Shown here piece after piece: positions 2,234 to 64,000 of a stretch of 64,000 nucleotides of DNA; the stretch's first letter is position 1; each line of letters opens with the position of its first letter. Both the position numbers and the translations under genes were made by a program. The notes beneath the pieces are model-generated. The model was given only the letters and a program-made list of their open reading frames with translations, made no database searches and was not told where the DNA came from. Source of the DNA: Berkelbacteria bacterium GW2011_GWE1_39_12 (GTDB taxonomy: Bacteria; Patescibacteriota; UBA1384; UBA12157); assembly GCA_001029735.1 (NCBI GenBank), contig CP011213.1:332288-396287 (forward strand), written 5' to 3'.

Positions 2234-3350
2234 TTATCGCCTCTTCCAGTAGCTTTATGGTTTCTTTTGCCGTCTTTTCCCAAGAGAACTTCTTAACTTG
2301 TTCTTTACCTGCTTTTGCCATCTGAGCGCGACTAATTTTACCCTCTAGAACTGCCTGTAAGCCTCCACAAATTGACTTAGGATCGTCAGGGTTAACTAAT
2401 ACACCCGCTGAACCTGCTACCTCTGGCATTGAGGAGAGCTTCGATGTCACGACTGGCGTGCCGAATTGCATCGCTTCAAGAATTGGGAAGCCAAAGCCTT
2501 CATATAACGACGGGTAAGCCACCACGGCCGCGTCTTGATATAACCTGGACAAATCTTTATCGCCGACATGTCCCAAAAAGCCGATTCTGTTTTTCACTCC
2601 TGTAGCCATAAGCGAATTGTAGATTCTGTCGGTATTCCAACCTTCAGCGCCCACTACCATTAAAGGATATTTTTCGATTAGTTTCGGCGGTAGCATTCCG
2701 TAAGCGGCAAAAAGAGTAGTTAAATTCTTTCTTGGCTCAATCGTACCGACAAATAAAATATAGCTTTTTTTCTTTAAATCTTTAGGTAAGTCTTTAGCAG
2801 GTTCCGCCAATTGGTTCAAACCAGGATAGATTGCCTTAACCTTATTTTCTGAAGTACCGGCAATTTTTTCGATATCTTTTTTGGTCGATTTTGAAACGGC
2901 AATGATTTTTTTACTGCCTTTGAGCGCCAACAAGGTTTGCCTGCTCAACCTTTCGGAAACATCTTCCCCGCGTTGCTCTGGGAATATGAAGGTGGTCATA
3001 TCGTGAATAATAGTCACTTGAGGTATTTTTAACCCGTTTTTATACTCCAAAAACGATGGCGCTAAGAGCACGTCTGCATCTTTGTATAAAGCGTTGTATA
3101 AACCGGAATTACCCCGCCACAGGGTTTCTTTAAGTGCACCAGGAATTTTAGCGGTTCTTATTTCGACGTTTTCTCTCCTGAAAGCTTTGATCGCCTTTTC
3201 TTTATTCTCATCATTTCTAAAGTAAGTGAAAATCAAAATATATTTGTTTTCCTTATCTTGCTCTAACAAATTTTCCACCAATCTCTTGGTGAAACGTCCT
3301 ATTCCAGCCGATTCAATAATTGCTCTCGAAGCGTCAATTGCAATTGTCAT
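2226..3350 (-). CDS. glycosyltransferase family 4
   Basis: motifs FVGTIEPRKN ... PSLYEGFGFPILEAMQFGTPVVTS (EX7E signature). Confidence 0.85.
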   Translation of the reverse strand: MTIAIDASRAIIESAGIGRFTKRLVENLLEQDKENKYILIFTYFRNDENKEKAIKAFRRENVEIRTAKIPGALKETLWRGNSGLYNALYKDADVLLAPSFLEYKNGLKIPQVTIIHDMTTFIFPEQRGEDVSERLSRQTLLALKGSKKIIAVSKSTKKDIEKIAGTSENKVKAIYPGLNQLAEPAKDLPKDLKKKSYILFVGTIEPRKNLTTLFAAYGMLPPKLIEKYPLMVVGAEGWNTDRIYNSLMATGVKNRIGFLGHVGDKDLSRLYQDAAVVAYPSLYEGFGFPILEAMQFGTPVVTSKLSSMPEVAGSAGVLVNPDDPKSICGGLQAVLEGKISRAQMAKAGKEQVKKFSWEKTAKETIKLLEEAING

Positions 3351-7497: not shown

Positions 7498-7573
7498 TGG
7501 TGCGCCCAGCAGGATTTGAACCTGCGACCTTCAGATCCGCAATCTGACGCTCTATCCGCTGAGCTATGGGCGC
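7498..7573 (-). tRNA. tRNA-Arg (anticodon GCG as read), CCA encoded
   Basis: revcomp gives gcgcccatagctcagcggatagagcgtcagattgcggatctgaaggtcgcaggttcaaatcctgctgggcgca-cca; the cloverleaf folds cleanly; anticodon loop is ttGCGga. Confidence 0.8.
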
Positions 7574-7618
7574 GTTTTGTATCAATCGCTCTTTAATTGC
7601 GTAGCAATTATTCTTATC

Positions 7619-7697
7619 ACTGAGCTACAGGCGCATATATGTTGATGTGCGCCTTGTTATTCCAATTCCGAAGGAATTGAGCTTTGCTACAGGCGCA
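7619..7697 (-). repeat. two copies of the tRNA 5' end (tgcgcctgtagctcag / tgcgcctgtagcaaag) at ~62-bp spacing upstream of the tRNA-Arg
   Basis: 15-17-nt matches to tRNA positions 1-15 at 7619-7635 and 7677-7697 (plus-strand coordinates). Confidence 0.7.
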
Positions 7698-7734: not shown

Positions 7735-8676
7735 TCAAGACTTGATTAATTCTTCCTTCAATAAAGGGACCATTTCCTTGCGCATCATAAATCCTGACCT
7801 TGTAGCTACATGATTAGTAAAATGAATATCCAAAACTTTAGAAAGAATTTTTTCTACTTCTTCAGTTGGAGCTACTATTATATTTTGATCCGCTTCGAGA
7901 TCAATAATGGTTAAGAAAACAACATCAAGACCTTGTTCTGACATAATCTTTCCGAGTTCTGACACAATCTCATCTTTTCTAGCTAAAGCCATTTCCTCTC
8001 CGCCAATCATTTCTATTTGGGCTGTTCCTAACTTATGAGAGCCAAAATTATGCCCTGCAAACCCAGCGAAGTCACTTCTTAACATCTTAATTAGTCTATC
8101 ACCTGAAAGATCTGACTTGGATAAAAACATCTTACGAGCAAAATCAGCTGGGAAATTATTTTCTTCATTTAGCCAAGCAGCAATTTCCCTATCTCTTTCA
8201 GTTGTAACTTTTGCTTGAAAATTAAGAGTATTTGAAATAATCGCACCATAAACCAAGGTAGCAATCTCTTTTGGCATTGAAAGACCTTTTTCTTTAAATT
8301 TTTCTGCAACCAAGGTGGCAGCAGCCCCAACTAACTCAATTTGAACCTTGGCATTAGGAAATTTCTCTGACATATTAATCTTGCGATGATCGACAATTTC
8401 GGTAACTTTTTCAGGATTAATTCTCTTGTCAATCCCATCCAAATCGCTTGAATCAACCAAAATAATCTCATCAAAATATTCAGGATTTTCTTCCTTAATA
8501 TTAAAATTAAGACCATATTCCATTAGCACATGGTCAGCTTCATCATGATGTCTACCTGAAACCGAAGGAACCGCTTTCATTCCCAATTGATTAAAATAAT
8601 AAGAATACGCAAAAATACAGGCAAAGCCATCTAAATCAGGATTAATATATCCAGTAACTAAAATTTTGTTTTCCAT
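7735..8676 (-). CDS. DHH/DHHA2-family phosphoesterase, family-II inorganic pyrophosphatase-like (divergent metal-binding motifs)
   Basis: 313 aa; N-terminus ...ILVTGYINPDLDG..., ...VDSSD..., ...VDHRK... align to the PpaC HQNPDTD / VDHNE / DHH motifs but with substitutions. Confidence 0.55.
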   Translation of the reverse strand: MENKILVTGYINPDLDGFACIFAYSYYFNQLGMKAVPSVSGRHHDEADHVLMEYGLNFNIKEENPEYFDEIILVDSSDLDGIDKRINPEKVTEIVDHRKINMSEKFPNAKVQIELVGAAATLVAEKFKEKGLSMPKEIATLVYGAIISNTLNFQAKVTTERDREIAAWLNEENNFPADFARKMFLSKSDLSGDRLIKMLRSDFAGFAGHNFGSHKLGTAQIEMIGGEEMALARKDEIVSELGKIMSEQGLDVVFLTIIDLEADQNIIVAPTEEVEKILSKVLDIHFTNHVATRSGFMMRKEMVPLLKEELIKS

Positions 8677-8745: not shown

Positions 8746-9906
8746 ATGAAGATAACATTACCAAAATTAAAATTTAAGATTTCTGAAACTGTGAAAGACG
8801 CTCTATCGATCACTTTACTGTTCCTCGCGTGGCGAGGCGCTCTTTTTTTAGTCGCCTACTTTGGCTATTTTGATATTGCTCCGGCAAATGGAAACTATTT
8901 AATCAAAGAGATCCATCCGGCAATTTCGATGTGGTTGGTTTATGATTATGGCTGGTTTAAAGATATTGTAGCCAAAAGTTATGACTTCAGCCGCCATTCT
9001 ATGGCTTTCTTTCCCTTATGGCCGGCCACGATTTGGTTATTCAGCAAAATATTTTATTTTGTTAATACCCATATAATAGCATTTGTTCTAGCTAACTTAA
9101 TTACTTTGGCAGACTGCTGGATTTTCTACAAATTAGTCCAATTAGACTACGACAAAGATACGGCTTACCGCTCGGTTAAATATTTTCTTTTCTTCCCAAT
9201 GAGCTTGTTTTTAGCCAGTGCTTACTCTGAACCATTATTTTTACTCGGCGTGCTTTCATCTTTTTACTTTATTCGAAAACAGCAATATCTCTTAAGCGGG
9301 TTCGGCGGAATAATTGCATCGGCTTCCAGATTAGTTGGCAGCATCATGCTTTTACCTTTAGTTATTGAAGTCATCAAGCAGAAAATTACAAAAGAAAATT
9401 GGTGGAAAACCCTCGGGATTTTAATCGCCCCGCTTGGTTTGTTAGGGTATATGTATTTTCTAAAAACAAATTATGGCGATTGCCTTGGCTTTCTGCACGC
9501 CTATCAAAACTCTGACTGGAACAGAGGGTACGGATACAACGCTTTCAATCTCTTTTGGAATGATATTAAAATTATATTTTCCTTTCACGGATTTGGGCCA
9601 TCCAAGGATTATGTCGACGCCATGATGACTACAGGTTCAGTTTTAGTGATGCTAACCGTTTTACTCTCTAATATTAAAAAAATCAGACTTTCCTATTTTG
9701 TCTATGCGATCTTGATAATGCTAGTTCCCCTCTTTTCCAACTCTTTAGACAGCTTAAACAGATATGTTTTGCCAATTTTTCCGTTTTTCATGGTTCTAGG
9801 TATTCTTGGTAGAAGAAAATGGGTCGACAGTTTAATCACCGTTACCTTCTTGGTTCTTTTAGGACTCTTTACTGTTATGTTTATCAATCGCTGGTGGGTT
9901 GGCTAA
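8746..9906 (+). CDS. polytopic membrane protein, putative GT-C-fold glycosyltransferase (DUF2029/PMT-like)
   Basis: 386 aa, ~10 TM, aromatic-rich loops; function inferred only from architecture and locus context. Confidence 0.35.
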   Translation: MKITLPKLKFKISETVKDALSITLLFLAWRGALFLVAYFGYFDIAPANGNYLIKEIHPAISMWLVYDYGWFKDIVAKSYDFSRHSMAFFPLWPATIWLFSKIFYFVNTHIIAFVLANLITLADCWIFYKLVQLDYDKDTAYRSVKYFLFFPMSLFLASAYSEPLFLLGVLSSFYFIRKQQYLLSGFGGIIASASRLVGSIMLLPLVIEVIKQKITKENWWKTLGILIAPLGLLGYMYFLKTNYGDCLGFLHAYQNSDWNRGYGYNAFNLFWNDIKIIFSFHGFGPSKDYVDAMMTTGSVLVMLTVLLSNIKKIRLSYFVYAILIMLVPLFSNSLDSLNRYVLPIFPFFMVLGILGRRKWVDSLITVTFLVLLGLFTVMFINRWWVG

Positions 9907-9956
9907 AAACCTTTATTTAATACGCAAAATTTGATAGAATAAGGTTAGAAAAATTT

Positions 9957-10083
9957 GGAGAGGGTCGCATAATAACATTGCTGATGCAAGAACGTTGTGT
10001 AACCTTCCTCGTTACATTCGGAAGGGTCGCATAAGCGAGCTTGTCCGACCATGGTATCGTAAAGTTTTGACAAACAATTTGTG
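9957..10083 (+). repeat. two ~63-bp units, each beginning with a copy of the tRNA-Ser 5' end (ggagagggtcgcata / ggaagggtcgcata)
   Basis: units start at 9957 and 10020; the tRNA starts at 10084 with ggaagggtcgcata. Confidence 0.75.
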
Positions 10084-10172
10084 GAAGGGTCGCATAGTGG
10101 CTTAGTGCGCTGGTCTTGAAAACCGGTAGGCCTGCAAGGGTCTCGTGAGTTCGAATCTCACCCCTTCCGCCA
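10084..10172 (+). tRNA. tRNA-Ser (anticodon TGA), long variable arm, CCA encoded
   Basis: GGAAGGG...ctggt-ctTGAaa-accgg...long variable arm...GTGAGTTCGAATCTCAC-CCCTTCC-G-CCA. Confidence 0.85.
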
Positions 10173-10211
10173 ATCCAAAGGAGAGAAATTAATAACTGGT
10201 GTACTTATATC

Positions 10212-10445
10212 TTGCAATGTTCAGACGGCACCTATTATACTGGGATAACAAACGATATAGAAAAGCGATTACTAGCTCATAATTCCGGTAAAGGTGCAAA
10301 GTATACATCCGGTAGAATTCCAGTAAAATTAGTTTATCGCAAAGAAAATCTGACCGAAAATCAAGCAAGAAAAAAAGAATTTACTCTGAAGACTCTTAGC
10401 CGAAAAGAGAAAGAGAAAATTATACACGGAGAGGTCGCACATTAA
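10212..10445 (+). CDS. GIY-YIG nuclease family protein (small URI-domain protein)
   Basis: [40 protein letters not shown]; no ATG, TTG start at 10212 or an unannotated upstream start; the 3' end HGEVAH* is encoded by a copy of the tRNA-Ser 5' sequence. Confidence 0.65.
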
Positions 10446-10542
10446 CCATATTTGACCCATGACTATACAAACAATTCACGGAGAGGTCGCATAACAACCT
10501 GCTGACGCAGAACGTTGTGCAACATCTCCTTCGTTTCACTAC
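10428..10542 (+). repeat. two units beginning ggagaggtcgca(c/t) upstream of tRNA-Ser(GCT); the first lies within the 3' end of the GIY-YIG ORF
   Basis: starts at 10428 and 10480; the tRNA begins at 10543 with the same 13-mer. Confidence 0.75.
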
Positions 10543-10630
10543 GGAGAGGTCGCATAGTGGCCTAGTGCGCCTCACTGCTAACGAGGTTACCCGCAAGGGT
10601 TCGAGGGTTCGAATCCCTCCCTCTCCGCCA
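10543..10630 (+). tRNA. tRNA-Ser (anticodon GCT), long variable arm, CCA encoded
   Basis: GGAGAGG...anticodon loop ctGCTaa...GGTTCGAATCCC...CCTCTCC-G-CCA; followed by a terminator hairpin at 10636-10660. Confidence 0.85.
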
Positions 10631-10729
10631 AACAAAAACATCCAATTCATTGGATTTTTTTGTTTGTTATTGACTCACCCCAAAAAATAGTCTAAAATAC
10701 AACCATCTTGGAAGACGGGAGAATCAACA

Positions 10730-11329
10730 ATGGTCTATTTTATTAGCGTATTAATTCTCCGCGTGATGGCATTCATGTTTTGGAAAATCGATTGGCTTAA
10801 TACTTCATCTATCCCGAAAACTGGGGCCGTGTTCTTCGTGAGCAAGCACAGCAGCTGGAAGGACATAATTATCATCGGCTTGGTCAGCAAGAGACCTGTA
10901 CACTTCGTCGCTAAGGTAGAGCTATGGCAGATCAACCGTTTTATATCCTGGTGGCTAAATGCAGTCGGAGCCATTCCGATAGACCGAGAACACCCTGACC
11001 CGTCGACCTTTAAGCGGGTCCGAAAACTGCTGAAAGACGGTGAAGTTGTCGCCATCTTCCCAGAAGGAACCCGAAATGATGAGAGGAAGATCACTCATTT
11101 CTTCGAGGGAGTCGGAGTCATGTCGGCCAAGATCGACATGGTTAAGTTGGTGCCTATAGTTCCTGATCATAAAGAATCCATCAAACGTTTTGGATTTGTT
11201 CCAGCTTTTCATTCCGTTGTGACGGTCGGCTGTGCCACAATCGCTGACAACCTCAAATCGAAAGATATAAACGACGCGATCGAAAGGAATCTAAAGGAAC
11301 TCGCGGCTATCGCTTTCAATCTCGCATAA
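10730..11329 (+). CDS. 1-acyl-sn-glycerol-3-phosphate acyltransferase family (PlsC-like)
   Basis: H(X4)D-type motif KHSSWKD and FPEGTRN motif; higher GC than flanking DNA. Confidence 0.65.
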   Translation: MVYFISVLILRVMAFMFWKIDWLNTSSIPKTGAVFFVSKHSSWKDIIIIGLVSKRPVHFVAKVELWQINRFISWWLNAVGAIPIDREHPDPSTFKRVRKLLKDGEVVAIFPEGTRNDERKITHFFEGVGVMSAKIDMVKLVPIVPDHKESIKRFGFVPAFHSVVTVGCATIADNLKSKDINDAIERNLKELAAIAFNLA

Positions 11330-11472
11330 CCCATCATCCGATGGGTTTTTTATTTGGGCAAAAGCATTGAACTCATGTAATTTTTATGGTACAGTTTACG
11401 CATAAAAAAAGAGACCACTATAAGACCTCTTTTCATCGCATTTTTTACAATTCAGGCAGAAAGGAACCGGTT

Positions 11473-12732
11473 ATGAAAACACTACCATTCAGCGAGGCGG
11501 AGATTCGAAGAGCCGTAAGTCAATTCCCGACACCGTTTCACCTGTACAACGCAGAGGCAATCCGACAAAACGCTCGACGCCTTATGAAGGCATTTGAGTG
11601 GGCCGGAGGATTTACGAACTTCTTCGCCGTCAAGGCCTGCCCTAATCCTTATGTCTTAGAGATACTAATGGAAGAGGGCTTCGGCGCCGACTGTAGTTCC
11701 GCATCAGAACTTGTTTTGGCTGAAATGGTCGGAATCACCGGCGAGATGATTATGTACACGAGCAACGATACATCAGCCAGAGAACTTGTAACGGCAGTCC
11801 GCGAAGGTGTAATCGTCAACCTTGACGACATCACTTTCATACCTTTTCTCGAAAAACATGCGGGTATTCCAGAATTACTTTGTCTTCGTTATAATCCGGG
11901 ACCACTCCGCGAAGGCAACGCTCTCATCGGCAAGCCTGAAGAGGCCAAATACGGCTTCACAGGGAAACAACTCCTCGAAGGCTATAAGATTTTACGTGAT
12001 AAAGGCGTAAAGAGATTTGGCCTTCACACCATGGTTGCAAGTAATGGGTTAGATCCACAATACTTTATTGCAACCGCCGAGATGCTTTTCAGTCTCGTGG
12101 CCGAAATCAGCGAAGAACTAGGCATTTGTTTCGAATTCGTCAACCTCGGCGGCGGCATTGGCATTCCTTATATGCCCGACCAAAACCCAGTTGATTTGGA
12201 AATCGTTTCAGCCGGCATCAAAGACCTTTACAAAGATATCATCATAGGTAATGGTCTTGATCCACTTAAGATCTATATGGAGAACGGACGTATGATTGTC
12301 GGCCCGTTTGGCTGTCTGGTCACAACTGCGATTCACCCGATGACGAAATACAGGGATTACGTTGGGGTGGATGCTTGTATAAACGCACTGATGAGGTATG
12401 CACTTTACGGTTCTTATCACCATATCACGGTCGTCGGCAAAGAGAACGACCCGCTCACCAAGACATACTGTGTAACCGGCTCGCTATGCGAGAACAATGA
12501 TTATTTCGCAACCGACCGGCTACTTCCAGAAATCGTCGAGGGAGACATCTTGGTGATTCACGATACTGGTGCACATGGTCATGCCATGGGTTCAAACTAC
12601 AATGGTAAACCTCGCCCGGCCGAAATCCTAATGGATCCAGACGGATCATTTAGACAAATCAGACGAGAGGAAACGACCGCAGATCTGTTCAAAACGCTTG
12701 ATTTTTCAAAACTCAGAACGAAGAGCAGATAA
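11473..12732 (+). CDS. lysA: PLP-dependent Orn/DAP/Arg decarboxylase family, probable diaminopimelate decarboxylase
   Basis: FAVKACPNPYVLEIL (PLP-Lys motif), GGGIGIPY, C-terminal beta-barrel region; ATG at 11473 chosen (track ORF begins 11386). Confidence 0.7.
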   Translation: MKTLPFSEAEIRRAVSQFPTPFHLYNAEAIRQNARRLMKAFEWAGGFTNFFAVKACPNPYVLEILMEEGFGADCSSASELVLAEMVGITGEMIMYTSNDTSARELVTAVREGVIVNLDDITFIPFLEKHAGIPELLCLRYNPGPLREGNALIGKPEEAKYGFTGKQLLEGYKILRDKGVKRFGLHTMVASNGLDPQYFIATAEMLFSLVAEISEELGICFEFVNLGGGIGIPYMPDQNPVDLEIVSAGIKDLYKDIIIGNGLDPLKIYMENGRMIVGPFGCLVTTAIHPMTKYRDYVGVDACINALMRYALYGSYHHITVVGKENDPLTKTYCVTGSLCENNDYFATDRLLPEIVEGDILVIHDTGAHGHAMGSNYNGKPRPAEILMDPDGSFRQIRREETTADLFKTLDFSKLRTKSR

Positions 12733-63323: not shown

Positions 63324-64000
63324 GTGAAAAAACTAGTTGTTTTATCGCTCGAGGTTCTTCTCGTTGTCTTGGCGCTTTTATGCGCCATCGTCCCGACAAT
63401 GGCCGGTGGACCAGATTCCCAGTTTAACGGCGTTCAGTTGGGCTTTGCCCAGCAGGTCTGGGGCGGTTGGTACGCAGCCGAAGTGTCGCCGCAAGGAATC
63501 GTCGTCCATCAGGGACAAACAATACTTCTCGAAGCTTGGGATACAGACTCAAGCAAACTCGAGACCGAATGGAAACCGGTCTTCATAGATCAGGGAATTT
63601 TCGGCAGTCTCTGGGGGTTTGTAACTTGGACCCCCACTGTTGTAGGCAAAGGGCAAATGTATCTTTTTGCCAAGAAACATCCTTCTCCCGCCGACACCAT
63701 CTCTGCGGTTTTTGAGCACGATATAGTGGTGGCGCCGGCTTTCGACCCGAGCTTGAAGATGTTCGCCCAGGCGTTTTACAATCCTGGGGATTACAGATAT
63801 GCCAGGATTGAGGTTCAGATCTGGAATGAGACCATTAATCCAACCGGAATAATGTTCAAACTCCAGGATGACGGCAATGGATTCTTCACGATCTTTGCCA
63901 GGAACACTCTTGGCACAGTCGTGAGCCAGTACCACGTATATGTCCAGCAACGCGATGATATCACGTATACAGTGAGTGGTATCGTCGTCAACGGGTACCG
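63324..64000 (+). CDS. secreted hypothetical protein, 3'-truncated by window end
   Basis: GTG start with AAGGGGA SD; signal peptide (M)KKLVVLSLEVLLVVLALLCAIVPTMA; the open frame runs to 64000 without a stop; higher GC; not in the ORF track because it has no in-window stop. Confidence 0.5.
   Translation, partial: MKKLVVLSLEVLLVVLALLCAIVPTMAGGPDSQFNGVQLGFAQQVWGGWYAAEVSPQGIVVHQGQTILLEAWDTDSSKLETEWKPVFIDQGIFGSLWGFVTWTPTVVGKGQMYLFAKKHPSPADTISAVFEHDIVVAPAFDPSLKMFAQAFYNPGDYRYARIEVQIWNETINPTGIMFKLQDDGNGFFTIFARNTLGTVVSQYHVYVQQRDDITYTVSGIVVNGY

Follow-up and report, generated by a model that had tools for sequence, protein, structure and literature searches.

The question raised by this locus is why the first bases of a tRNA-Ser gene should be written several times over, directly ahead of two tRNA-Ser genes that enclose a small GIY-YIG nuclease gene. 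The DNA analysed, hereafter the window, is a 64-kb stretch from the ultra-small CPR bacterium Candidatus Berkelbacteria GW2011_GWE1_39_12. In a first-pass annotation it had been proposed that a family of small GIY-YIG genes inserts exactly at the 5' boundary of tRNA-Ser genes, with the tRNA end being regenerated and the repeats being left behind as coding-end scars. Here the repeats, the gene and related loci (designated by L numbers) are analysed, and the explanations that could account for them are weighed.

Organisation of the tRNA-Ser block

The string GGTCGCATA has five exact copies in the 64 kb, all on the + strand and confined to positions 9963-10556, where a sixth copy carries one mismatch; the repeat, its coordinates and the six copies at two tRNA-Ser genes had been correctly described. 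Each of them marks where tRNA-Ser(TGA), tRNA-Ser(GCT) or one of four upstream units of 52-63 nt starts, and for the 11-mer GRGGTCGCAYA three matches were found versus 0.01 expected from shuffles. The features of the block are as follows:

9930..9940, + strand: promoter-like extended -10 element tttGaTAGAAT, 5' of the entire tRNA/GIY-YIG block (read from the sequence)
9957..10019, + strand: unit A1, X-type, in which the tRNA-Ser 5' end is repeated (ggagagggtcgcata) and a small stem-loop at the apex is followed by a complementary arm on the 3' side (fold, covariance model)
10020..10082, + strand: unit A2, Y-type, in which the 5' end of tRNA-Ser(TGA) is repeated (ggaagggtcgcata), with a short stem (GGTCG/CGACC) and a tail ending in ...gttttgacaaacaatttgt (sequence)
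10083..10172, + strand: tRNA-Ser(TGA), intact, CCA encoded (ARAGORN; Rfam tRNA, 53.9 bits)
10188..10445, + strand: GIY-YIG nuclease gene GIY#1, 85 aa, UPF0213/YhbQ type (Pfam PF01541, PDB 1ZG2)
10428..10479, + strand: unit B1, decayed Y-type, with a 5'-end copy carrying one change (ggagaggtcgcaCAt), apex lost, tail ending in ...caaacaattcac (sequence)
10480..10542, + strand: unit B2, X-type hairpin (fold, covariance model)
10543..10630, + strand: tRNA-Ser(GCT), intact, CCA encoded (ARAGORN; Rfam tRNA, 52.4 bits)
10629..10666, + strand: terminator-like hairpin followed by a T run, at the block end (inverted repeat I1, 18-nt arms, 94% complementary)

The start of tRNA-Ser(GCT) at 10543 stands as first annotated, while that of tRNA-Ser(TGA) has to be moved from 10084 to 10083. 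Start-to-start distances are 63 and 63 nt along A1, A2 and tRNA-Ser(TGA), and 52 and 63 nt along B1, B2 and tRNA-Ser(GCT). Each unit begins by repeating the initial 11-20 nt of its downstream tRNA together with a few bases of the leader, and units of this kind were found upstream of all four tRNA genes examined in the Berkelbacteria genome. The 13-mer repeats represent tRNA gene self-fragments. The earlier remark that an ORF terminates at each copy with G(E/R)VA and a stop is literally true and yet uninformative, because all copies share ...GGTCGCATA(A/G), in which GCA-TAA/TAG is an in-frame stop; what is being translated is the GCATAG or GCATAA of the tRNA.

The motif TTTGxTAxxxT is present at the position equivalent to 9930..9940 in L084, L089, L090 and L091, and we regard the element as a putative promoter, since a consensus scan gave a different candidate nearby (9946-9973). 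A sigma-70 promoter based on the TTGACA found in Y tails was rejected, the distance to any -10-like hexamer being 20-21 nt. A CRISPR-like or casposon-like reading of the array (repeat of about 30 nt, spacer of about 30 nt, 14-nt duplication) was also dropped, as the repeat is tRNA-specific and cas and casposase genes are absent.

The GIY-YIG gene and its product

GIY#1 sits between the two tRNA-Ser genes, with an ATT start at 10188 placed 3 nt past the Shine-Dalgarno sequence aaaggagag (10177-10185). A profile search with ORF 10212-10445 alone returned PF01541 with E = 3e-12, in support of the GIY-YIG identity first assigned to it; when read from the upstream in-frame ATT, the entire domain is covered (E = 8.6e-16, 58.4 bits versus a cut-off of 22.6 bits, profile positions 1-77 of 78), and the NCBI record GCA_003509005.1 of the same genome annotates the gene with 85 aa. 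Residues 3-79 match PDB entries 1ZG2 (E = 1.8e-18) and 1YWL (E = 6.8e-15), and the motifs ..YIL.., YYTG, ..R..H and E are visible in the translation. On these matches, GIY#1 is a member of the GIY-YIG superfamily (PF01541) and of the UPF0213/YhbQ-like proteins. The ORF does end inside the first repeat at 10428, as had been noted: its last 18 nt, stop included, fall within unit B1, and GGAGAGGTCGCA is common to the ORF end (10428-10439) and to both tRNA starts, with 12-13 identical bases.

The products of GIY#1 and of GIY#3, a second subfamily described below, are 80-85 aa long and contain nothing beyond the catalytic domain. A homing endonuclease combines a nuclease with a sequence-specific recognition domain, and both proteins lack a DNA-binding domain. 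At E <= 0.001 the PHROG search gave no family for GIY#1 and no match to SegB or to homing endonucleases. SegB has around 220 aa, with a DNA-binding region. The dN/dS of GIY#1 is 0.07-0.2 and its divergence (70-73%) is similar to that of the flanking orthologs (68-80%), values by which the gene is evolving like a resident, vertically inherited one. Its expression is probably throttled, judging from the AUU start and from a stop codon located beyond the expected RNase P cut.

Hairpin units at the tRNA-Ser genes

Two unit types, X and Y, occur at the tRNA-Ser genes, and in most units the copied tRNA 5' end pairs with a complementary arm, giving a predicted hairpin. The X-type units A1 (MFE -20.5 kcal/mol, z = -3.9; covariance model 66.9 bits) and B2 (MFE -23.6 kcal/mol, z = -4.4; 74.9 bits) show 88% identity along their full length and 85% identity in the body, so that the homology of unit bodies between the two loci, already pointed out in the first-pass annotation, holds; the B2 body is also 90% identical to the X unit of L083, in another genome. 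Compensatory changes are found in 7 of the 18 pairs of the hairpin fold. Between genomes whose synonymous sites are saturated, the X body retains 90-97% identity (94% for the tRNA itself), and X is 97% identical to its copy in a genome where the synonymous sites of GIY#1 are saturated (pS 0.71). As for the Y type, the fold of A2 is no better than those of shuffles (z = -0.4), its tail being common to B1, L090, L084 and the Y unit of L138, while B1 gives no significant fold and is homologous to the long unit of L090, where the apex is retained.

Each of the three tRNA-Ser loci of the Berkelbacteria genome has both an X and a Y unit, in the order X-Y at one and Y-X at two. Unit counts vary among relatives: none in L085 or before the tRNA-Ser(GCT) of L091, one in L083 and L090, and two here. 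The breakpoint follows position 13-14 of the tRNA in all tRNA-Ser units, and lies in the anticodon loop or the T-loop in other relics. A1, the distal X, is the most diverged X, and B1, the distal Y, is mutated and no longer has an apex, a pattern of divergence that fits an order in which the proximal unit is the youngest.

Searches for further members of these types were negative within the following limits. Rfam 15 at E <= 10 (positions 9000-11500) returned only tRNAs, with no match in 9957-10082 or 10428-10542, and at gathering thresholds only tRNAs were obtained for the whole window, which places X and Y in no described RNA family. Covariance models of X and of XY detected no additional copies, either in the window or among 18 other loci, the X sequence had no match in the viral-contig scan, and the antisense pseudo-ORF spanning tRNA and units, used as a query for other genomes with repeated copies, gave no matches.

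Self-fragments at the tRNA-Arg(GCG) gene

The fourth tRNA gene with units lies on the opposite strand of the window:

7498..7573, - strand: tRNA-Arg(GCG), intact (ARAGORN; Rfam 75.7 bits)
7574..7634, - strand: unit U2, repeating tRNA-Arg from position 1 to about 20 (gcgcctgtagctcagtgata), with a small hairpin at the place of the D-loop and the 3' strand of the D-stem (gagcg) (sequence)
7635..7696, - strand: unit U1, a copy of tRNA-Arg positions 1-11, an 8-bp hairpin capped by cUUCGg, and aaggcgc+A (sequence, fold)

U2 lacks the remainder of the tRNA (self-fragment test, p = 0.003). In U1, aaggcgc+A corresponds to the acceptor 3' strand plus the discriminator base, and the unit folds with an MFE of -18 kcal/mol (z = -3.6). 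No nuclease gene was found among the genes neighbouring these units. At the tRNA-Arg of L090, 5' and 3' self-fragments are both present.

tRNA linkage and possible replacement in related loci

A survey for GIY-YIG ORFs abutting tRNAs, which the first-pass annotation had called for, gave a clear result close to GIY#1: the eight distinct close loci (proteins 70-76% identical) all directly abut a tRNA-Ser gene, upstream and/or downstream. Among more than 180 more distant GIY-YIG loci (80 from GTDB, 43 from metagenomes outside the close clade and 58 viral), a tRNA was adjacent in just two, L051 and L130, and an association with tRNAs across the UPF0213 family was rejected. The family of small GIY-YIG genes at tRNA-Ser that had been postulated can thus be upheld for the eight close loci and for L138, L199 and L203, described below, and not family-wide. 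Wedging against tRNA-Ser, with the stop codon within tRNA-derived sequence, is limited to the Berkelbacteria-type clade within UPF0213.

The tRNA partner itself changes among relatives. The junction between ...ATTATACAC and GGAGAG is retained against two distinct tRNA-Ser(GCT) sequences, and in L084, L089 and L090 the resident tRNA-Ser(TGA) survives as a 3' remnant that is directly preceded by a different tRNA-Ser(TGA); L084 has retained the 5' part of the resident tRNA upstream as well, which places the insert in the anticodon loop of that tRNA. L083 and L088 have 295 nt in common at 92% identity, ending exactly at ...CACGGAGAG, with both flanks unrelated, a stretch that we count as a putative cassette exchange in favour of the explanation preferred below. 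No empty site, with tRNA-Ser(TGA) beside tRNA-Ser(GCT) and no gene, was recovered in related genomes.

tRNA-Ser loci interrupted by an ORF

The second subfamily, GIY#3, is found in the same genome at L138, about 0.8-1.4 kb past the window end. The order there is Y, X, positions 1 to about 36 of tRNA-Ser(CGA), a GC-rich hairpin, GIY#3, intact tRNA-Ser(CGA), the trailer TTGTGACAA and a decayed T-arm relic; the relic 5' half of the tRNA (ggagagg...) differs from the intact copy (ggaaggg...). GIY#3 is frameshifted in this genome, and its reconstructed protein matches PF01541 with E = 3e-14 and PHROGs with a weak N-terminal match alone; no relatives appeared in the viral-contig scan. In L199, from another CPR lineage, positions 1-16 of tRNA-Ser(GCT) are followed by the ORF, the intact tRNA, TGTGACAA and a 3' relic; tatcggagc, a direct repeat of 9 bp, is found at both sides. 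In L203, also from another CPR lineage, the 5' half of tRNA-Ser(CGA), up to ...tttcgaaa, is followed directly by ATG, the ORF and the intact tRNA. The three loci share the layout tRNA-Ser 5' fragment, ORF, intact tRNA-Ser, with decayed 3' relics in L138 and L199. All three GIY#3-type loci examined are therefore tRNA-adjacent, a count affected by selection bias, as L199 and L203 were chosen for ORF calls that ran into their flanks.

Over-long ORF calls of this subfamily translate flanking sequence (GEVAASPRLV, for example, is encoded by a 5' fragment of tRNA-Ser together with the GC hairpin), and on back-translation the C-termini appear to read into tRNA-Ser, as confirmed in the DNA for P0166 in L203. 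A GC-rich double hairpin (CCAGCCnnnGGCTGG plus a second stem) was seen only beside GIY-YIG genes at tRNA-Ser loci, and in L199 it has a 7-bp target duplication. Together with the linkage in the clade, the layouts of L138, L199 and L203 fit the part of the original proposal by which the tRNA is regenerated and 5' scars are left in series.

A possible mechanism and its precedents

The reading that we prefer, and to which we give roughly even credence, is that nuclease-promoted breakage and replacement of tRNA genes has left the nested self-fragments. A nuclease encoded at or near the locus would cut tRNA genes within the DNA encoding the D-, anticodon or T-loop, and the break would be repaired from another tRNA-Ser copy, either a paralog or incoming DNA, in which the nuclease gene and/or a hairpin insert precedes a full tRNA or the 5' part of one. 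As the template bears a tRNA, a working gene would always be regenerated beside the insert, while the old 5' piece would be displaced upstream and, at times, the old 3' piece downstream. Repeated rounds would give serial scars, the youngest being closest to the live tRNA, and the ORF-less X and Y units would have spread likewise among the three tRNA-Ser paralogs. The entire block may be a single transcription unit, and we propose that confinement in a local hairpin is what allows each copy to persist; the hairpins could originate from fold-back repair, or from selection against a decoy 5' end that would disturb the folding of the co-transcribed tRNA.

By analogy, this process is best read as a bacterial-chromosome variant of the SegB/tRNA amplification of T-even phages and of the gene hybrids created by mobile ORFs in fungal mitochondria. 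SegB is a free-standing GIY-YIG homing endonuclease located in the T-even phage tRNA gene cluster (PMC13096335; Brok-Volchanskaya 2008 cited there); in T6 the enzyme cleaves within tRNA genes, microhomology of its 3' end with the 5' end of a tRNA leads to tandem amplification of tRNA-containing segments, and the protein has a C-terminal part beyond the nuclease domain (PMC13096335). The block shares with it a GIY-YIG gene among tRNA genes and the microhomology between ORF 3' end and tRNA 5' end (12-13 bases here), and differs in the 80-85 aa, catalytic-domain-only proteins, of putative nuclease activity and with no homology beyond the core for GIY#1 in PHROG, in the host DNA, which is a bacterial chromosome instead of a phage, and in the repeats, which are ORF-less hairpin units of 52-63 nt and not whole tRNA-plus-gene units. 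Fungal mitochondrial mORFs carry a replacement gene end that displaces the native one, and the native part survives as a diverged duplicate beside the insert; such gene hybrids are known for Allomyces atp6 and Glomus atp6, atp9, cox2 and nad3, with LAGLIDADG or GIY-YIG ORFs (PMC3630166). L138, L199 and L203 follow the same logic with tRNA-Ser, a displaced 5' relic being found in L138 and L203 and both 5' and 3' relics in L199, whereas the GIY#1 ORF of the window lies between two genes and not within one. Here the target is a tRNA gene in a bacterial host rather than a protein gene, the replacement is a whole tRNA or its 5' part located 3' of the ORF, so that the displaced relic is mainly a 5' end, and the relics are hairpin-folded and in series.

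In favour of this mechanism we count the architecture of the interrupted loci, the coupling in the clade, the nested replacement, to which the tRNA fragments of L090 and L130 also belong, the recurrent breakpoints, the youngest-proximal order, the spread, the cassette exchange and the experimental precedent. Against it stand the missing DNA-binding domain, the lack of tRNA linkage of UPF0213 elsewhere (GIY#1 matches this family, PDB 1ZG2 and 1YWL, over its full length, yet the family at large is tRNA-adjacent in 2 of more than 180 distant loci), the vertical-like evolution of GIY#1, the missing empty site, the tRNA-Arg units without a nuclease and the frameshift in GIY#3. Self-immunity is a further difficulty, as the intact tRNA beside each insert retains the presumed break site, and a nuclease of 80 aa without a recognition domain raises the question of how targeting is achieved; if the mechanism is true, one possibility would be structure-specific cutting of hairpin-prone tRNA DNA.

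It is also conceivable, though in our estimate doubtful, that CPR bacteria carry a selfish cassette not described so far, in which a GIY-YIG gene reduced to its catalytic domain travels with tRNA-Ser or its 5' part, invades and replaces the resident tRNA-Ser at loop-encoding positions and leaves nested self-fragments; X and Y derivatives would spread among paralogs and genomes, being tolerated as their decoy 5' ends are hairpin-locked, and the nuclease would be made at trace level through an AUU or AUC start and a stop beyond the RNase P cut that yields a non-stop mRNA. Were this so, tRNA genes in the reduced genomes of CPR bacteria would be contested ground for minimal nuclease cassettes, which replace a target rather than split it, and the SegB/tRNA and mitochondrial mobile-ORF paradigms would be extended to bacterial chromosomes. 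It would also account for unannotated repeats and hairpins around CPR tRNA genes, for tRNA pseudo-fragments that confuse annotation and for rearrangement breakpoints at tRNA loci.

Alternative explanations

The X, Y and tRNA-Arg units could instead be functional pre-tRNA leader hairpins with no causal link to GIY-YIG genes, acting as RNase P or processing punctuation, as stabilisers of upstream mRNA 3' ends or as folding insulators, with GIY#1 being a resident UPF0213 housekeeping gene that lies in a tRNA operon by chance. We consider this possible, if on the unlikely side. The strong folds (z from -3.6 to -6.2), the compensatory changes, an X body as conserved as the tRNA despite saturated synonymous sites, and apical loops of the stable RNA types cUUCGg and UAAC are in line with it, and the conservation and covariation of X and the UUCG/UAAC loops suit a functional RNA equally well as they do our preferred mechanism. 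The units at tRNA-Arg occur without any nuclease gene, every unit is placed between a promoter-like element and a mature tRNA, rnpA is encoded in the genome and GIY#1 evolves like a resident; hairpins of this kind would represent an undescribed class of tRNA-mimicking leader element. However, the presence, number and order of units differ among close relatives, B1 and A2 fold no better than shuffles, no Rfam family is matched, and the near-identity of X across genomes, as opposed to compensatory drift, looks more like recent spread; nor does this reading explain the 3' self-fragments downstream of tRNAs, or why a complete GIY-YIG ORF should occupy the insert position in an identical direct-repeat architecture. 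Ordinary tandem duplication and decay of tRNAs, or gene conversion among tRNA-Ser paralogs, with no nuclease involved and a coincidental GIY-YIG adjacency, seems improbable to us. X and U1 do retain both acceptor strands and the discriminator base, and U2 the D-arm, as internally deleted tRNAs would; the direct repeats around the units would permit slippage, expansion and loss, and tRNA-Ser paralogs have common 5' sequence. The breakpoints are, on the other hand, non-random, all those of tRNA-Ser units following position 13-14, the apical hairpins are foreign to tRNA, GIY-YIG ORFs occupy the exact insert position in three independent loci, and two GIY-YIG subfamilies occur at three tRNA-Ser loci, versus 2 of more than 180 distant loci that are tRNA-adjacent.

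Two further readings have very little probability in our view. Tyrosine integrases reportedly insert in tRNA genes, the element carrying a copy of the tRNA 3' part, and integrative elements are said to duplicate a tRNA segment at the crossover (Williams, 2002); the units could accordingly be att-site duplications made by a recombinase or transposase (integrase, casposase-like, IS) that targets tRNA 5' regions, their hairpin bodies being what remains of tiny non-autonomous elements. The regenerated intact tRNA and the duplicated tRNA segment at the other end of the insert resemble such events, the double hairpin of L199 has its target duplication, and the L085 locus has a serine recombinase gene at a distance of about 2.4 kb. 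The adjacent recombinase, 3' duplication and kb-sized element of an integrase-type att duplication are nevertheless missing here: no integrase or transposase is called in about 20 kb around the window loci, the ORF-less inserts have just 35-50 nt (tens to hundreds of bases for inserts as a whole), it is the 5' part that is duplicated whereas known tRNA integrases duplicate the 3' part, and the repeat sequence is tRNA-specific, which argues against a single site-specific enzyme. The literal form of the original proposal, in which every unit without an ORF goes back to a former GIY-YIG gene copy and represents its 3' coding end in decayed form, is just as hard to sustain. GIY#1 truly ends within a copy, and each copy is preceded by about 12 nt similar to the end of the ORF (aaacaattcac versus aaaattatacac), but the native tRNA leader (agaaaaattt) shows the same similarity, the alignment of the stretch before the L138 Y unit, the one candidate remnant tested, with the GIY#1 3' end is at chance level (p about 0.1), and comparison by eye revealed no coding similarity between the window unit bodies and the GIY-YIG ORF. 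The units are hairpins built on a tRNA copy, GEVA-stop being tRNA sequence read in frame, and the same kind of unit is found at tRNA-Arg(GCG) without a GIY-YIG gene.

Additional observations

GC-rich double-hairpin elements were reportedly described in Allomyces mitochondrial DNA by Paquin et al. in 2000. Those seen here are likewise small GC-rich double hairpins in an AT-rich genome, next to putative mobile endonuclease ORFs, and differ in their unrelated sequences, the bacterial host and a mobility that is putative. The term for such elements appears in PMC4570212 and others. A 204-aa ORF beside GIY#1 in L091 gave weak HTH matches only (Pfam, PHROGs, PDB), for which reason its reading as a LAGLIDADG protein is a guess. 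In L130, one of the two distant loci with an adjacent tRNA, a tRNA-Ala 3' fragment precedes the GIY-YIG gene.

The tRNA-Ser block and its units

When the region at 9957-10660 was re-read from the sequence, the repeat strings, positions and spacing claimed in the first-pass annotation all agreed with it. The source organism, Candidatus Berkelbacteria bacterium GW2011_GWE1_39_12, belongs to the CPR and has a genome of 915 kb. Both tRNA-Ser genes of the block have two units upstream, each opening with a copy of the first 13-15 bases of that tRNA. Five exact copies of GGTCGCATA are present in the 64 kb, confined to the tRNA-Ser block, along with a sixth that has one mismatch, and the 11-mer version of the repeat gave 3 matches, versus 0.01 expected. 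Two analogous units are associated with a tRNA-Arg gene.

Features of the tRNA-Ser block and of the tRNA-Arg gene
9930-9940: extended -10-like element, kept at the equivalent place in relatives
9957-10019: unit A1, X type, 5' of tRNA-Ser(TGA)
10020-10082: unit A2, Y type, 5' of tRNA-Ser(TGA)
10083-10172: tRNA-Ser(TGA) (ARAGORN and Rfam)
10428-10479: unit B1, Y type, 5' of tRNA-Ser(GCT)
10480-10542: unit B2, X type, 5' of tRNA-Ser(GCT)
10543-10630: tRNA-Ser(GCT) (ARAGORN and Rfam)
10629-10666: terminator-like hairpin, 3' end of the block
7498-7573, minus strand: tRNA-Arg(GCG)
7574-7634, minus strand: unit U2, tRNA positions 1 to about 20, D-loop hairpin and D-stem 3' strand
7635-7696, minus strand: unit U1, tRNA positions 1-11, cUUCGg hairpin, acceptor 3' strand and discriminator base (z = -3.6)

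Since the -10-like element and the terminator-like hairpin bracket the block, the series X, Y, tRNA, GIY-YIG gene, Y, X, tRNA is probably a single transcript.

In the X units (A1, B2) the stretch corresponding to tRNA positions 1-16 is base-paired to a complementary 3' arm. The resulting long hairpin carries a 4-bp stem and a tetraloop as its cap and has z-scores of -3.9 to -6.2 against shuffles. The Y units (A2, B1) have a shorter stem on GGTCGCATA(T) and a tail ...(t)ttgacaaacaatt...; the Y copy of L138, another locus of this genome, is a clean 10-bp hairpin, and both window copies are decayed and fold no better than shuffled sequences. Each of the three tRNA-Ser loci in this genome has both X and Y. 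At L090 and L091 (L numbers denote loci with GIY-YIG homologues) a longer unit joins an X-like apex to a Y body, which shows that B1 is the same unit after deletion of the apex. A consensus fold of six copies has 18 pairs, 7 of them with compensatory change (for instance TTGC/GCAA, CTGC/GCAG and TTTTC/GAAAA with a cUUCGg loop). No Rfam family matches the units, and a covariance model built on them found zero further copies within the window. X is 97% identical to its L083 copy while the synonymous sites of the GIY-YIG gene are saturated between both genomes, which points to either recent spread or strong constraint.

Self-fragments upstream and downstream of tRNAs were scored with a shuffling test. 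An upstream self-fragment was detected for all four tRNAs available from this genome (p <= 0.003), the type-1 tRNA-Ser of L083, L090 and L091, the tRNA-Ser(GCT) of L199 and the tRNA-Arg of L090; downstream, 3' self-fragments were found for the L090 tRNA-Arg, the tRNA-Ser(GCT) of L083 and L199, and the L130 tRNA-Ala. The test was negative for 'type-2' tRNA-Ser genes of relatives and, upstream, for tRNAs of the more distant GIY-YIG loci L015, L051, L075, L105, L147 and L172. Around tRNA-Arg(GCG) there is no nuclease gene nearby; the units are restricted neither to tRNA-Ser nor to nuclease-gene loci.

The GIY-YIG gene and its association with tRNA-Ser

GIY#1, the GIY-YIG gene of the window, lies between tRNA-Ser(TGA) and tRNA-Ser(GCT). 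The mechanical ORF call (TTG at 10212) is without the first beta-strand of the domain. Read from an in-frame ATT at 10188, located 3 nt past the Shine-Dalgarno aaaggagag, the protein has 85 aa, the length also annotated in this genome's NCBI record. The GIY-YIG identity proposed earlier was borne out by profile search: this form spans the entire Pfam domain (E = 8.6e-16), and it is also similar to the UPF0213 structures 1ZG2 and 1YWL. Neither in the window (10177-10190) nor at the equivalent place in L083, L084, L088 and L090 does any ATG, GTG or TTG start preserve the catalytic GIY strand. In frame, a few nt past a strong AAAGGAG, the window, L088 and L090 have ATT as start codon and L083 and L084 have ATC; in L091 and L086 the start is ATG. 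Retention of a near-cognate start across loci suggests deliberately low translation. The stop codon lies 3' of the first base of the tRNA-like copy or of the real tRNA (window 10428-10445; L083 388-402; L088 868-906; L089 2103-2141), in L088 and L089 being formed within the anticodon loop. An RNase P cut at that first base would give a non-stop mRNA.

The link between GIY-YIG genes and tRNA-Ser genes is real, and the expectation that such ORFs adjoin tRNA-Ser in relatives held: tRNA-Ser(TGA) is directly upstream in L083, L084, L085-87, L089, L090 and L091, and tRNA-Ser(GCT) directly downstream in L083, L088 and L090. The L089 ORF runs into the same type-2 tRNA-Ser(GCT) 5' end as L088, followed by the contig end. 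Among the closest homologues (66-76% identity) the linkage is visible in the protein termini, some ending in ...KIIHGEMLEWLKRASC, a read-through into tRNA-Ser, and others beginning with a translated tRNA 3' end. L083 and L088 have in common a 295-nt cassette (92% identity) with unrelated sequence on both flanks, ending exactly at the junction of ...ATTATACAC with GGAGAG, which is retained against two unrelated tRNA-Ser(GCT) sequences. The family at large is without this link, an adjacent tRNA being present in 2 (L051, L130) of more than 180 more distant loci drawn from GTDB genomes, metagenomes and viral contigs.

In L084 the downstream position is occupied by a chimeric tRNA (2745-2834). Its 5' part and anticodon arm are those of tRNA-Ser(TGA), and its 3' part is that of tRNA-Ser(GCT); the anticodon loop is 8 nt long, and ARAGORN reports a 90-nt tRNA-Gln(CTG). 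In L091 a 204-aa ORF with an N-terminal HTH (2689-3303; also in L086 from 1677, incomplete at the contig end) separates GIY#1 from tRNA-Ser(GCT); its C-terminal part is LAGLIDADG-like by eye (LLYWCEGSK), and Pfam, PHROGs and PDB gave HTH matches only.

GIY#1 looks like a long-term resident of its slot rather than a frequent jumper, because it is under purifying selection (dN/dS 0.07-0.2) and its divergence equals that of the flanking glycosyltransferase and DUF2304 genes. Genes for GT2, DUF2304 and a PIG-V-like mannosyltransferase surround the block (window 8746-9906 and 10730 onward; L084, L090 and the contig of protein call P0005) on differing sides and strands, so that the block coincides with rearrangement breakpoints.

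Proposed nested replacement of tRNA genes

The resident tRNA-Ser(TGA) of L084, L089 and L090 persists as a 3' remnant, with a different tRNA-Ser(TGA) directly adjoining it on the 5' side. L084 also retains the 5' part of its resident tRNA-Ser(TGA) upstream, which places the insert in its anticodon loop. The 51-nt 3' half of this doubly interrupted tRNA (L084 2412-2462), directly 5' of the GIY#1 ribosome-binding site, is 100% identical to window 10122-10172 despite saturated synonymous sites between the two genomes, suggesting either recent interruption or a relic 3' end still under constraint. At L130 a distant GIY-YIG gene is preceded by a tRNA-Ala 3' relic.

L138, whose position 9071 is window position 64000, carries GIY#3 (7906-8148, about 0.9-1.2 kb past that position), a gene of a second, CPR-rich subfamily. 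The order is Y, X, a tRNA-Ser(CGA) 5' half, GIY#3, intact tRNA-Ser(CGA), the trailer TTGTGACAA and a decayed T-arm relic. The 5' half reaches the anticodon, has a GC-rich double hairpin inside its D-loop, and differs from the intact copy (ggagagg... against ggaaggg...), as would be expected of a resident and an incoming copy. GIY#3 has a frameshift in an A8 run, which the independent JGI protein call P0129 also implies; this is a pseudogene or, alternatively, a site of slippage. Over-long ORF calls in this subfamily translate the same flanks as at L138, GEVAASPRLVGLGPKW being a tRNA-Ser 5' fragment plus GC hairpin and FDSPPRH a tRNA 3' end. By back-translation several C-terminal ends appear to read into tRNA-Ser, and for protein call P0166 (L203) this was confirmed on DNA. 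There, a tRNA-Ser(CGA) 5' half ending ...tttcgaaa is followed directly by the ATG of the ORF and then by the intact tRNA. At L199 the order is tRNA-Ser(GCT) positions 1-16, ORF, intact tRNA, TGTGACAA and a 3' relic, the insert being bracketed by a 9-bp direct repeat.

The common layout is an old tRNA 5' piece, an insert (GIY-YIG gene or short hairpin body), a complete tRNA and sometimes an old 3' piece, with recurrent breakpoints in the D-loop (after position 13-16), anticodon loop and T-loop. The serial units fit an order with the youngest nearest the live tRNA: among X units, the distal one (A1) has diverged most, and B1, the distal Y unit, is decayed.

Origin of the units

The proposal that small GIY-YIG genes insert at the tRNA-Ser 5' boundary and leave decayed coding 3' ends stands in part: the data fit serial scars at tRNA-Ser genes occupied by a nuclease gene and do not fit remnant coding ends. 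The 'G(E/R)VA-stop' ORF ends are merely GGAGAGGTCGCATA(A/G) read in one frame; the stretch before the L138 Y unit, the sole candidate tested, aligned to the GIY-YIG 3' end at chance level, and by eye the window unit bodies have no coding similarity to GIY-YIG. We favour a reading in which a nuclease would promote breakage of tRNA genes, which would then be replaced from a template, with serial self-fragments as the trace. From the anatomy, associations and conservation observed, we infer the cutting, its direction and a role for the hairpins, which may reflect a fold-back origin or sequester a decoy 5' end. Two precedents support this reading: the T6 endonuclease SegB cuts within tRNA genes, and tRNA segments are amplified via microhomology of its own 3' end with the tRNA 5' end (PMC13096335); in fungal mitochondria, mobile ORFs bring along a substitute for one end of a gene, by which the native end is displaced (PMC3630166). 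The main rival is that the X, Y and tRNA-Arg units are functional leader RNAs, which would account for their conservation, covariation and UUCG/UAAC loops; it is compatible with breakage and replacement. In a literature search no description of this arrangement was found, only the phage and mitochondrial analogues, and a study of the group I introns located in tRNA genes of Patescibacteria mentions neither GIY-YIG genes nor tRNA duplication.

GC-rich hairpins

The CCAGCCnnnGGCTGG motif occurs in 6 of the 203 loci, each time beside a GIY-YIG gene at a tRNA-Ser locus. With a second stem it forms a GC-rich double hairpin in AT-rich surrounding DNA (L090 2309-2323; L138 7878-7892; L199 2032-2046), which in L199 has a 7-bp target duplication (gtggctg), resembling a tiny mobile element. 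A 97-aa GIY-YIG gene of a different subfamily, with no adjoining tRNA, lies about 2.8-3.1 kb ahead of window position 1 in this Berkelbacteria genome (L136 13886-14179), with GC-rich inverted repeats on both sides (gtcatgccggaccggctg... and ...cagccggtccgggatgac).
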